Below are positions 58,723 to 58,791 of a DNA stretch of 64,000 bases, in pieces. The notes beneath the pieces are model-generated. The model was given only the letters and a program-made list of their open reading frames with translations, did no database searches and had not been told where the DNA came from. The position numbers and the translations under genes were made by a program. Source of the DNA: Escherichia phage adrianh. The stretch lies in sequence record MN850614.1; one strand, written 5' to 3'. Each line of letters starts with the position of its first letter. Position 1 is the stretch's first letter.

Positions 58723-58757
58723 TTGACAGACTCTACAAAGTTGCTCTAAAGTCTGTC
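58723..58757 (+). promoter_or_regulatory. Promoter-like element with 9-bp inverted repeat (possible operator)
   Basis: TTGACA then palindrome GACAGACT ... AGTCTGTC, about 35 nt upstream of the Ro60-like gene. Confidence 0.4.
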
Positions 58758-58791
58758 ACATCAAACAACAAATGAGAGAAGAGAGTAAAAT

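Follow-up and report, generated by a model that had tools for sequence, protein, structure and literature searches.

The closest described systems to the element considered here are the promoter-early stem-loop (PeSL) cassettes of T4-type phages (Arbiol et al. 2010, PMC2839356; Comeau et al. 2014, PMC4122927). By definition, a PeSL cassette starts with an upstream stop codon set in A/T-rich sequence and continues with a sigma-70 promoter, whose -35 and -10 boxes flank or are overlapped by a stem-loop containing G-T pairs, before a Shine-Dalgarno sequence and an ATG; one PeSL stem-loop has been found to end transcription in a reporter (PMC2839356). The Felix O1-like phages are widely used in Salmonella and E. 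coli typing, biocontrol and therapy. For Felix O1 itself, the genome paper gives only five candidate promoters, lists none ahead of the Ro60-like gene, and leaves unexplained how transcription passes through the many terminators. Our search of the literature for transcription start, 3'-end or RNA-seq data on Felix O1-like phages returned nothing usable.

The DNA analysed here, referred to as the window, is a 64,000-nucleotide stretch of Escherichia phage adrianh (MN850614.1), a Felix O1-like coliphage (Felixounavirus). Within it, a gene for a 123-aa DUF5681 protein (58339-58710, + strand, from the ORF list; Pfam PF18932, E 2e-14; gene 46 in wV8) is followed on the same strand by the gene for a 471-aa Ro60 homologue (58792-60207). 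An earlier note on this DNA had singled out the range 58723-58791, which runs from the -35 box to the final base ahead of the ATG, as an operator-like palindrome. We propose that the palindrome is instead the stem of a hairpin built into a host-type sigma-70 promoter of the Ro60-like gene, in the manner of a PeSL cassette, and we put the probability of this reading at roughly 0.6.

The parallel with PeSL cassettes is close in layout. The order of parts is the same, the gap of 81 nt from the TAA stop (58708-58710) to the ATG (58792) is similar to PeSL gaps, and a stable predicted stem-loop overlaps the -35 and -10 boxes and the spacer between them. As in PeSL, the stem could be transcribed only from upstream, and the phage carries dispersed repeated cassettes (family A, six copies). 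There are also clear differences. The phage belongs to the Ounavirinae and not to the T4 group; the stem sequence at this site is unique rather than a dispersed repeat, sharing only the promoter consensus with the others; and its arms are made of promoter elements (-35 box paired with discriminator, spacer paired with -10 box), not of G-run/C-run stems. PeSL cassettes also form dispersed repeat families beside small ORFs within plastic regions, and serve as recombination linkers through which gene modules are gained and lost. What the computation establishes here is the promoter motifs, the conserved and co-varying hairpin, and the recurrence of such layouts; from these we infer promoter activity, the start site and the part played by the hairpin in RNA. 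The comparison would extend the PeSL concept beyond the T4-type phages.

The promoter motifs themselves lie close to the consensus. The -35 hexamer TTGACA (58723-58728, + strand) matches the consensus at 6/6 positions and is followed, after an 18-nt spacer, by the -10 hexamer TAAAGT (58747-58752, + strand), in which positions A2 and T6 are present. Together the boxes match the TTGACA/TATAAT consensus at 10/12 positions and lie within the usual 16-18 bp spacing, so that TTGACA-18-TAAAGT is well supported as a predicted sigma-70-type promoter. Directly ahead of it lies the A/T-rich tract AAAAAATAATTTTAAAAGGTG (58693-58722, + strand), which contains the stop codon of the upstream gene and which resembles an UP element. 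A similar TTTTAAAAAGnTn tract precedes TTGACA at 60227, 60318, 61781, 47790 and 5977 (- strand).

Spacing and a shared motif place the predicted transcription start at 58758 (+ strand), the A of cACATc, 6 nt past the -10 box and so inside the 6-8 nt usual for sigma-70-type promoters. The YACAT start motif is common to this promoter and to those at 60227 and 60318, where it reads tACATag, and the TAAAGT -10 hexamer is found again at promoter 60318 and in four family-A cassettes. A purine-rich Shine-Dalgarno region, GAGAGAAGAGAG (58774-58785, + strand), lies 7-18 nt ahead of the ATG and outside the hairpin. Overall, this arrangement suggests that the Ro60 homologue has its own host-polymerase promoter.

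The inverted repeat reported earlier, of 9 bp and overlapping a TTGACA -35-like hexamer, is exact. Its left arm, TGACAGACT (58724-58732, + strand), consists of -35 bases 2-6 and the first four bases of the spacer; its right arm, AGTCTGTCA (58750-58758, + strand), consists of the last three bases of the -10 hexamer and the discriminator, up to the predicted start. A check of the sequence gives complementarity at 9/9 positions across a separation of 17 nt, and 33 nt separate the end of the right arm from the ATG (58792). The full predicted stem-loop (58719-58762, + strand) begins 9 nt past the TAA of the DUF5681 gene. It is a 13-bp bulged hairpin made up of an outer stem GGUGU/ACAUC, a bulged U, an inner stem GACAGACU/AGUCUGUC and a 17-nt loop, with a folding energy of -15.6 kcal/mol (z = -3.1).

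Taken alone, a single 9-bp repeat of this kind is not significant. Perfect 9-bp inverted repeats with a loop of 3-30 nt are centred at 16 places in the window, and dinucleotide shuffles give 8.8 +/- 2.8. The focal repeat rises above chance because it extends to a 12-nt arm with 92% complementarity, because none of 200 shuffles (0/200) is as stable as the 58719-58762 hairpin, and because it is retained in several diverged lineages. That about nine such repeats are expected per window by chance nevertheless lends some weight to a different view, in which only the promoter is functional and the complementarity is a historical accident, kept since most of its bases are promoter elements. We regard this accidental origin as unlikely, although it deserves to be weighed against the conservation and recurrence data below.

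If the hairpin is part of the promoter, as we propose, host RNA polymerase would initiate on the Ro60-like gene from a promoter whose own elements supply both stem arms. The -35 box would pair with the discriminator just before the start, and the first spacer bases would pair with the -10 hexamer. Transcripts starting at about 58758 would therefore lack the hairpin, which would form only in read-through RNA from the DUF5681 gene. The likely source of such read-through is the predicted DUF5681-gene promoter, TTGACA-17-TAGGCT (58189-58217, + strand), found from the sequence and by scanning and corresponding to P41 as reported for Felix O1; in RNA from this promoter the hairpin would follow closely on the stop codon. 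It seems most likely that the hairpin would attenuate or end upstream transcription, or protect the 3' end, and that the embedded promoter would restart transcription for the Ro60-like gene.

Two side observations belong here. The + strand hairpin has no U-tract and its loop is long, at 17 nt (8 nt in Mooglevirus), and for these reasons it is not a canonical intrinsic terminator; a Rho-independent terminator on the + strand, which would call for a G+C-rich stem, a loop of 3-8 nt and a U-tract immediately 3' of it, was accordingly rejected as a candidate, the stem being followed by ACAUCAAACAAC with no U-run. Separately, the structured leader at 58232-58330, between the DUF5681-gene promoter and its gene, is almost invariant.

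To compare the site across relatives, their loci were retrieved via protein anchors. This replaced an earlier IMG/VR scan with the degenerate pattern AAAAGNTGTTGACAG, which had returned 120 contigs, mostly unrelated and only two of them Felix-like. The hairpin is kept in four or five diverged lineages, with fold z-scores of -2.9 to -5.2 in Felixounavirus, Suspvirus, Mooglevirus and the lineages that we label L159/L162, L165 and L164. All of the lineage representatives (10/10) give a + strand hairpin, with energies of -14.4 to -19.5 kcal/mol. TTGACA is invariant in every relative examined, including those without the hairpin, with the single exception of L160 (TTGACG). The orthologous -10 hexamers read TAGAGT, TAGGTT or TAAATT, and T1, A2 and T6 are kept in every relative. 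The promoter boxes are thus conserved against a heavily diverged spacer, which is 17 nt long in Mooglevirus and L159/L162.

The arms of the stem change in a way that preserves pairing. No lineage whose -10 hexamer is TAAAGT or TAGAGT departs from AGTCTGTC, and L164, whose -10 is TAGGTT, retains only the CTGTC core of the right arm. The proximal spacer tracks the -10 hexamer: ACTCTA occurs with TAAAGT, GTTCTA or ACTTTA with TAGAGT, and TAATCT with (T)AGGTTA in L164, where both inner arms have a new sequence and still pair. In every hairpin-keeping lineage, then, the first spacer bases are complementary to that lineage's own -10 hexamer. Within the 9-nt arms, the left varies at two of nine positions (7-8) and the right is fixed; the changes (A-U to G·U, C-G to U·G) produce G·U pairs on the + strand and no better DNA dyad, and the outer pair is A-U, G·U or G-C depending on the lineage. 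The loop is wholly replaced in L165 and Mooglevirus while the arms stay.

These data bear on an accidental origin of the complementarity from both sides. Ten of the 17 stem pairs never vary, most invariant stem positions double as promoter elements, and covariation among 13 distinct sequences did not reach significance in a shuffle-based test (70/500 shuffles reach the observed score). In addition, three more distant relatives (L158, L160 and phiEa21-4) have lost the hairpin and keep the promoter directly past the DUF5681 stop, so the hairpin is dispensable for promoter function. Against this, the discriminator CTGTC is not needed by the promoter, as the hairpin-less relatives differ there, yet it is invariant wherever the hairpin is kept. 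Likewise, the proximal spacer, which is otherwise unconstrained, changes in step with three different -10 hexamers and remains complementary to each of them. The more divergent L164 was not added to the covariance-model set because it went undetected at E<=1.

The same comparison speaks to the operator-like control that the earlier note had suggested. Here a dimeric phage or host protein would bind TGACAG...CTGTCA, occlude the -35 and -10/+1 regions and so repress or time the Ro60-like gene. An exact dyad does sit where binding would block RNA polymerase, and its TGACAG/CTGTCA core is invariant in all hairpin-bearing lineages. The phage also encodes a Cro/C1-type HTH protein (3545-3841, - strand; 71% identical to Sf14 gp62). 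In Felix O1, genes 41 and 42 reach their maximum at 25 min rather than 5 min, so some timing control exists. In its inverted-repeat symmetry and its coverage of the -35 and -10/+1 regions the site resembles known dyad operators (lambda OR/OL, LexA boxes, lac O1). In those operators, however, the half-sites adjoin or are separated by one to two integral helical turns, and the sites occur in several places or beside the regulator gene; the focal dyad is single-copy, spans 2.5 turns with variable spacing, and has inner arms that co-vary.

Several features in particular are difficult to reconcile with a DNA-binding protein. The half-site is unique in the genome of about 86 kb, its matches with at most one mismatch are at chance level, and there is no second dyad. 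The half-site centres lie 26 bp apart, or about 2.5 turns, which places them on opposite faces of the helix, and the distance shifts to 25 bp in Mooglevirus and L159/L162; the half-sites therefore neither share a helix face nor hold a fixed spacing among orthologues. Left-arm positions 7-8 vary and the right arm does not, and in L164 the inner arms have given way to other sequences that remain complementary, something that a protein reading the sequence does not need. The left core TGACA is simply the -35 consensus, and many promoters share the geometry with unrelated stems that one regulator could not read. We found no further operator sites in the genome and no adjoining regulator gene, the only recognised HTH gene lying about 55 kb away in window coordinates. 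What stands from the original suggestion is that the control region of the Ro60-like gene contains a dyad and that this dyad overlaps a -35-like hexamer; the step to a repressor or activator is unsupported, given the unique half-site, the variable 2.5-turn spacing, the arm replacement in L164 and the recurrent geometry. We therefore consider an operator improbable. More generally, perfect palindromic symmetry across a -35 box does not by itself mark an operator, and RNA pairing explains it better here.

Other DNA-level candidates were set aside from known geometry. A CRP site requires TGTGA-N6-TCACA, a spacing much shorter than the one here. An operator of the MerR type was likewise set aside, its dyad lying within a 19-20 bp spacer. 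The -35 and -10 boxes would not fall on opposite arms in hairpin promoters of the N4 type or in single-strand promoters (Frpo, for example), and extrusion of a cruciform would be unfavourable with a central loop of 8-17 nt.

The embedded hairpin that we favour is not confined to this promoter. Stems of unrelated sequence recur in this geometry at no fewer than ten further intergenic promoters of the window. In family A, six cassettes of the form TTTACA-N17-TAAAGT contain the stem GGGGCTTA/TAAGCCCC, where none (0) is expected. Between copies and phages this stem shows compensatory variants (GGGGCTA/TAGCCCC, GGGGTTTA/TAAGCCCC and, in phiEa21-4, GGGGTTAT/ATAACCCC), which were read straight from the sequences, as the MAFFT alignment set the phiEa21-4 right arm out of register. 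At the 28088 promoter the stem is AAGGTGATGT/ACATCACCTT and leads into a U-tract, and stems are also present at promoters 37075, 47790, 60227 and 60318.

Fold z-scores of intergenic promoter-like windows average -1.62 (n=26), compared with +0.10 for in-gene promoter-like matches (n=41; Mann-Whitney p=0.0014) and -0.54 for other intergenic windows (n=94; p=0.024); both p-values are optimistic, because the family-A copies are paralogues and not independent. This genome-wide enrichment of promoter-overlapping stems, together with the clear compensatory changes in family A, is a further argument against a purely accidental complementarity at the focal site. Promoter and stem-loop cassettes appear to punctuate the genome, the gap ahead of the Ro60-like gene included, and this provides a testable map of transcription units.

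The identity of the downstream gene raises the question of whether the hairpin could be linked to its product. The label 'Ro60-like' proved correct by fold. For the 58792-60207 product, Pfam gives matches to DUF2828 and DUF7788, PHROG gives family 850 ('RNA-binding protein'), and a PDB sequence search with it gave no match. Its AlphaFold (AF2) model has a pLDDT of 88.4, and the 11 best Foldseek PDB matches of that model are all Ro60/TROVE structures (2i91, 9kop, 9l5y, 1yvr, 2nvo), with TM up to 0.67, full-length alignments and E 2e-9 to 4e-7. By this model, the protein combines a TROVE-like HEAT-repeat ring with a C-terminal vWA domain.

Ro60 proteins are RNA binders that recognise bulged helices, and one bulged U interrupts the focal stem. 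The Thermus phage phiLo has two Y-RNA-like genes, Yrl1 and Yrl2, directly upstream of its Ro60 gene (PMC12135203). Conceivably, then, the read-through hairpin is a cis ligand of the downstream Ro60 homologue, either Y-RNA-like or autoregulatory. Both phages do have sequence capable of forming structured RNA directly upstream of a Ro60 homologue. The phiLo RNAs, however, are small RNAs in their own right, built from a 5'-3' stem and a large internal loop and bearing a CGAA motif, whereas the focal element is a simple in-promoter hairpin of about 44 nt with no such motif and no promoter of its own. No Rfam Y-RNA, YrlA or other family overlaps 58716-58768 at E<=5, and Rfam at gathering thresholds finds only tRNAs. 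A conserved CGAA-type motif is lacking, SUSP1 alone happening to have ACGAAG in its loop. The identical geometry at promoters unrelated to Ro60 is a simpler explanation, and a role as Ro60 ligand strikes us as barely credible. More elaborately, the hairpin might belong to a designed switch instead of acting as a passive attenuator, a switch in which the -35 and -10 elements are kept complementary to discriminator and spacer across genera, in which its recognition by the Ro60 homologue couples Ro60 expression or loading to upstream transcription, or supplies a minimal Y-RNA-like ligand, and in which it forms an RNA-protein module together with the 58232-58330 leader; we mention this as a highly speculative idea.

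On the opposite strand, the hairpin is followed by UUUUAAAAUUAUUUUUU and could act as an intrinsic terminator that stops antisense transcription from the Ro60-like gene or the tRNA cluster. The - strand fold is stable (-17.2 kcal/mol, z -3.2) with the U-rich run directly after it, Felixounavirus proper folds slightly better on the - than on the + strand, and the Felix O1 annotation treats a sibling hairpin, equivalent to 60219-60250 here, as terminating on either strand (t42/t43). The U-run, however, arises because this strand is complementary to the A-rich UP-like tract and the stop-codon region, and is thereby explained without a terminator function; nor is there a convincing - strand gene rightward for 1.4 kb. 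In 7/10 lineages the - strand hairpin is the weaker (range -11.5 to -20.6, against -14.4 to -19.5 kcal/mol on the + strand), because G·U pairs become C·A mismatches. Termination on the - strand is accordingly very unlikely to be what maintains the stem.

The sibling in question lies directly after the Ro60-like gene (60219-60255, + strand). Its hairpin, AAAGGGTAT/ATACCCTTT, encloses the -35 box of TTGACA-17-TAATAT, and it is the best non-self match (23 bits) of a covariance model built on the focal element. This is the hairpin annotated in Felix O1 as the bidirectional terminators t42/t43 (PMC3185647). It represents the next intergenic element in the same operon and, like the focal hairpin, it encloses the TTGACA of the following promoter (Whichard et al. 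2010, PMC3185647). The two differ in that t42 has a partial + strand U-tract, a 14-nt loop and was detected by TransTerm, while the focal hairpin lacks the + strand U-tract and is previously unreported. In phiEa21-4, which has no Ro60 gene, the orthologous promoter past the DUF5681 stop lies directly ahead of tRNA genes, an arrangement that would fit a module placed between two promoter cassettes.

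The focal hairpin lies in an 81-nt gap between the plus-strand DUF5681 gene (58339-58710, 123 aa) and the 471-aa Ro60-like gene (58792-60207, plus strand), 3' of which stands a plus-strand cluster of 18 tRNA genes. Further upstream, lysis and tail genes form a leftward block that stops near 58110 and is separated from the plus-strand genes by a divergent control region. Over 57700-60400 the sequence shares 97-99% identity with more than 200 Felix O1-like phages (Felixounavirus) of E. coli and Salmonella, the closest match being Escherichia phage garuso (98.8%), and 42 more records (Suspvirus, Mooglevirus) match it at 80-90% identity.

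The 9-bp inverted repeat described in the earlier note is exact, with arms TGACAGACT at 58724-58732 and AGTCTGTCA at 58750-58758 and 17 nt between them. As claimed there, the left arm overlaps the hexamer TTGACA (58723-58728) and the repeat precedes the Ro60-like gene, its right arm ending 33 nt upstream of the ATG. By itself the repeat proves little, since the window holds 16 centres of 9-bp inverted repeats that are perfect and have loops of 3-30 nt, where shuffles give 8.8 +/- 2.8. The repeat extends to 12-nt arms with 92% complementarity, and the extended structure is a bulged 13-bp hairpin (58719-58762) with outer stem GGUGU/ACAUC and inner stem GACAGACU/AGUCUGUC. Its predicted fold has an energy of -15.6 kcal/mol (z = -3.1), and none of 200 shuffles was equally stable.

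The earlier interpretation was right to place a promoter here: TTGACA belongs to the predicted promoter TTGACA-18-TAAAGT, which matches 10 of 12 consensus positions. On its 5' side stands an A/T-rich tract, AAAAAATAATTTTAAAAGGTG, that we take to resemble an UP element, and on its 3' side cACATc. Promoters 60227 and 60318 (named by start coordinate), the next two in the downstream direction, both carry the tract TTTTAAAAAGnTn on their upstream side and tACATag as a start motif, and the -10 hexamer TAAAGT recurs at promoter 60318 and in four repeated cassettes at other places in the window. The -35 and -10 boxes are retained from genus to genus and the spacer has diverged; it measures 18 nt in Felixounavirus, as against 17 nt in Mooglevirus and the related sequence L159. 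The promoter lies directly 3' of the DUF5681 stop codon in all relatives examined, including the hairpin-less L158, L160 and Erwinia phage phiEa21-4, in the last of which the Ro60 gene is absent and the promoter faces tRNA genes. Given the box match, the flanking motifs, the conservation across genera and the presence in all relatives examined, the promoter call is computationally well supported. No transcription start data for Felix O1-like phages were found in the searchable literature; the Felix O1 genome paper lists no promoter before the Ro60-like gene and reports an RT-PCR peak at 25 min for genes 41 and 42 (PMC3185647).

In order to compare the hairpin among relatives, we assembled about 35 orthologous gaps; the sources were GenBank phages, IMG/VR and contigs with a gene product that shares 62-89% identity with the Ro60 homologue. 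A hairpin with z of -2.9 to -5.2 is predicted in Felixounavirus, Suspvirus, Mooglevirus, L159/L162, L165/L166 and L164 (protein identity of the last three ~80%, 87% and 62%), and the plus-strand energy is -14.4 to -19.5 kcal/mol in 10 of 10 lineage representatives. The right-arm core CTGTC is invariant, its partner being the -35 box, whose own sequence is not free to vary. In the left arm, A is replaced by G at position 7 and C by T at position 8, so that G·U and U·G pairs form; depending on lineage, the outer stem has A-U, G·U or G-C as its second pair; and the loop is wholly different in L165 and Mooglevirus, with the arms kept. The first six spacer bases are complementary to each lineage's own -10 hexamer: ACTCTA with TAAAGT in Felixounavirus, GTTCTA with TAGAGT in Mooglevirus, ACTTTA with TAGAGT in L159 and TAATCT with (T)AGGTTA in L164. 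This tracking is the most telling hairpin pattern and is what selection for pairing predicts, because the free partner (the spacer) follows the partner fixed by promoter function (the -10 hexamer). A covariation shuffle test on 13 distinct close sequences was not significant, the observed score being reached in 70 of 500 shuffles. The hairpin has been lost in three distant relatives (L158, L160 and phiEa21-4), and Yersinia phage P778 has just a weak, different stem around the -10 hexamer. We consider it unlikely that the hairpin is a functionless by-product. In Felixounavirus proper the minus-strand hairpin is slightly more stable than that of the plus strand; that it serves as a minus-strand terminator seems very improbable.

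While the observation and the promoter part of the earlier note stand, its reading of the palindrome as an operator controlling the Ro60-like gene is not supported. Half-sites with at most one mismatch occur 24 times in the window (22.5 expected) and 7 times in the other 26 kb of the genome, for which the wV8 sequence was used (9.4 expected), with no second dyad among the matches in either, and GACAG-N15-35-CTGTC is seen twice against 1.1 expected. From centre to centre the half-sites are separated by 26 bp (25 bp in other genera), or about 2.5 turns, so that they lie on opposite helix faces; L164 has other sequences in the inner arms, and the left core is no more than the -35 consensus. The phage has a gene for a Cro/C1-type HTH protein (3545-3841, minus strand), but nothing points to its binding here, and a protein operator at this site is improbable. 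The HTH protein is 71% identical to Sf14 gp62, annotated as a Cro/C1-type helix-turn-helix transcriptional regulator, and is the sole obvious candidate DNA-binding regulator seen.

The same layout, a stem-loop built into a promoter, is found all over this phage. Six intergenic cassettes of about 110 nt (family A, 43084-46483; promoters 43115, 43587, 43933, 44535, 45607 and 46403) carry TTTACA-N17-TAAAGT, except for one TATGAT and one TATCTT. Their inner stem GGGGCTTA/TAAGCCCC begins just after the -35 box and finishes just after the -10 hexamer, the outer stem CTTTA/TAAAG takes in the -35 box, and the Shine-Dalgarno sequence and ATG of small ORFs lie 3' of this two-tier stem-loop. None would be expected by chance, and the folds reach -16.5 to -17.8 kcal/mol. 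Further copies occur in Sf14 (five) and phiEa21-4 (one), and among the three phages the stems show compensatory changes (GGGGCTA/TAGCCCC, GGGGTTTA/TAAGCCCC, GGGGTTAT/ATAACCCC). At 28088-28135, TTGACA-AAGGTGATGT-...-TAGGCT-T-ACATCACCTT-TTTTTATT holds the stem AAGGTGATGT/ACATCACCTT followed by a U-tract; the left arm starts just after the -35 box and the -10 hexamer sits in the loop (-23.5 kcal/mol, z -6.5). By its predicted fold this is a canonical, genuine terminator wrapped around a predicted promoter. Promoter 37075 has a palindromic spacer, stems are also found at promoters 47790, 17147, 60318 and 61781, and hairpin 60219-60250 encloses the -35 box of promoter 60227. The last is the best non-self match (23 bits) to a covariance model of the focal element, and its equivalent corresponds to terminators t42/t43 in the Felix O1 annotation (PMC3185647). 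Intergenic promoter-like windows have a mean fold z of -1.62 (n=26), against +0.10 for intragenic promoter-like matches (n=41, p=0.0014) and -0.54 for other intergenic windows (n=94, p=0.024), a comparison inflated by the family A paralogues.

The tandem promoters 60227 and 60318 lie in a strongly conserved segment (60219-60373) between the Ro60-like gene and tRNA-Pro, with about 90% identity across genera, above that of coding DNA. Promoter 60227 could yield a small RNA or leader, since just ~60-90 nt of non-coding sequence precede promoter 60318. A second repeat family (45226-48918, 5-6 copies) consists of GTAAATTACTAATCAAC, the hairpin GGGAGG-TAATAG-CCTCCC, a Shine-Dalgarno sequence and ATG, and may be a different promoter class with the -10-like TAATAG in the loop. 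At 33761-33815 and 55639-55585 (minus strand), a promoter-like TTGACA...TATGAT/TATCTT has the same terminator hairpin, GGCTCCT(a/t)CGGGAGCC, and a T-run directly 3' of it; this repeated module also occurs at several Sf14 sites.

The promoter-early stem-loop (PeSL) cassette of T4-type phages has a stop codon within A/T-rich sequence, then a strong sigma-70 promoter whose -35 and -10 boxes flank or overlap a stem-loop (G-T pairs included), and lastly a Shine-Dalgarno sequence and an ATG; one such stem-loop terminated transcription as well as rrnB T1 (PMC2839356, PMC4122927). The focal element has the same structural features, and the family A cassettes of this Ounavirinae phage are likewise PeSL-like. 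Unlike PeSLs, the focal element is no dispersed repeat and belongs to another phage subfamily; we therefore file it as PeSL-like, a putative rather than a proven member that probably works in the same manner. Host RNA polymerase would start at about 58758, giving transcripts that lack the hairpin, and as the purine-rich ribosome-binding region (58774-58785) also lies outside it, translation would be unmasked. RNA from the upstream promoter (58189-58217) would cross the DUF5681 gene and fold the hairpin 9 nt past the stop codon. Having no U-tract, the hairpin is unlikely to be an efficient terminator and would more probably attenuate transcription in part or hold back 3' exonucleases, with the embedded promoter then setting the Ro60 message level independently. 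Overall, the focal element is probably a promoter/stem-loop cassette of an ordinary sort, though a neatly constructed one.

The protein encoded at 58792-60207 matches DUF2828, DUF7788 and PHROG 850 ('RNA-binding protein'); a PDB sequence search with it gave no match. We modelled it with AlphaFold from 36 homologues (pLDDT 88.4), and the 11 best PDB neighbours by Foldseek were all Ro60/TROVE structures, including Xenopus Ro60 2i91 (TM 0.67), Thermus phage phiLo Ro60 and Deinococcus Rsr. The label 'Ro60-like' is thereby borne out, and the modelled fold identifies the DUF2828/DUF7788 protein as a structural Ro60/TROVE homologue. Y-RNA-like genes upstream of phiLo Ro60 (PMC12135203) raise the idea that the focal hairpin is an RNA ligand of the homologue, but neither Rfam nor motif evidence supports this and we give it almost no weight; no Y-RNA family was detected near the gene. 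Homologues are widespread, occurring in 709 phage records, among them Vibrio, Listeria, Staphylococcus and Mycobacterium phages. In phiEa21-4 (21381-22040) the order directly 3' of the DUF5681 gene is orthologous promoter, tRNA-like gene, tRNA cluster; as the Ro60-like gene is missing there, in Felix-like phages it looks like a module flanked by two promoter cassettes.

The DUF5681 gene is the first of a rightward unit that also holds terminase and structural genes. Its product has the basic, glycine-rich N-terminus MKNRTNKGQFKKGQSGNPSGR (58339-58400) and falls in PHROG 4114, which carries no annotation. Felix O1 was reported without a recognised small terminase subunit, and one may speculate, no further, that the DUF5681 protein is tied to it. 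The leader at 58232-58330, which separates promoter 58189-58217 from the DUF5681 start codon and lies upstream of the Ro60-homologue operon within the divergent control region, is near-invariant in Felixounavirus, Suspvirus, Mooglevirus and L159, its conservation being far above that of the genes on either side. The predicted fold is a long stem, CCUCUAAAAAGGCU/AGCCUUUUAAGAGG, enclosing an inner hairpin, CAGAUAUC/GAUAUCUG (z -2.7), with one pair found as C-G, U·G and U-A, and the sequence contains repeated ATCT motifs; it may act as a structured RNA (a Y-RNA-like lead) or as DNA bound by protein. Within the tRNA cluster, 62014-62092 is a weak tRNA-like match by Rfam only (31.7 bits, no ARAGORN call), and 62586-62685 is a hairpin of about 100 nt whose shape matches a plant miRNA precursor model (32.7 bits).
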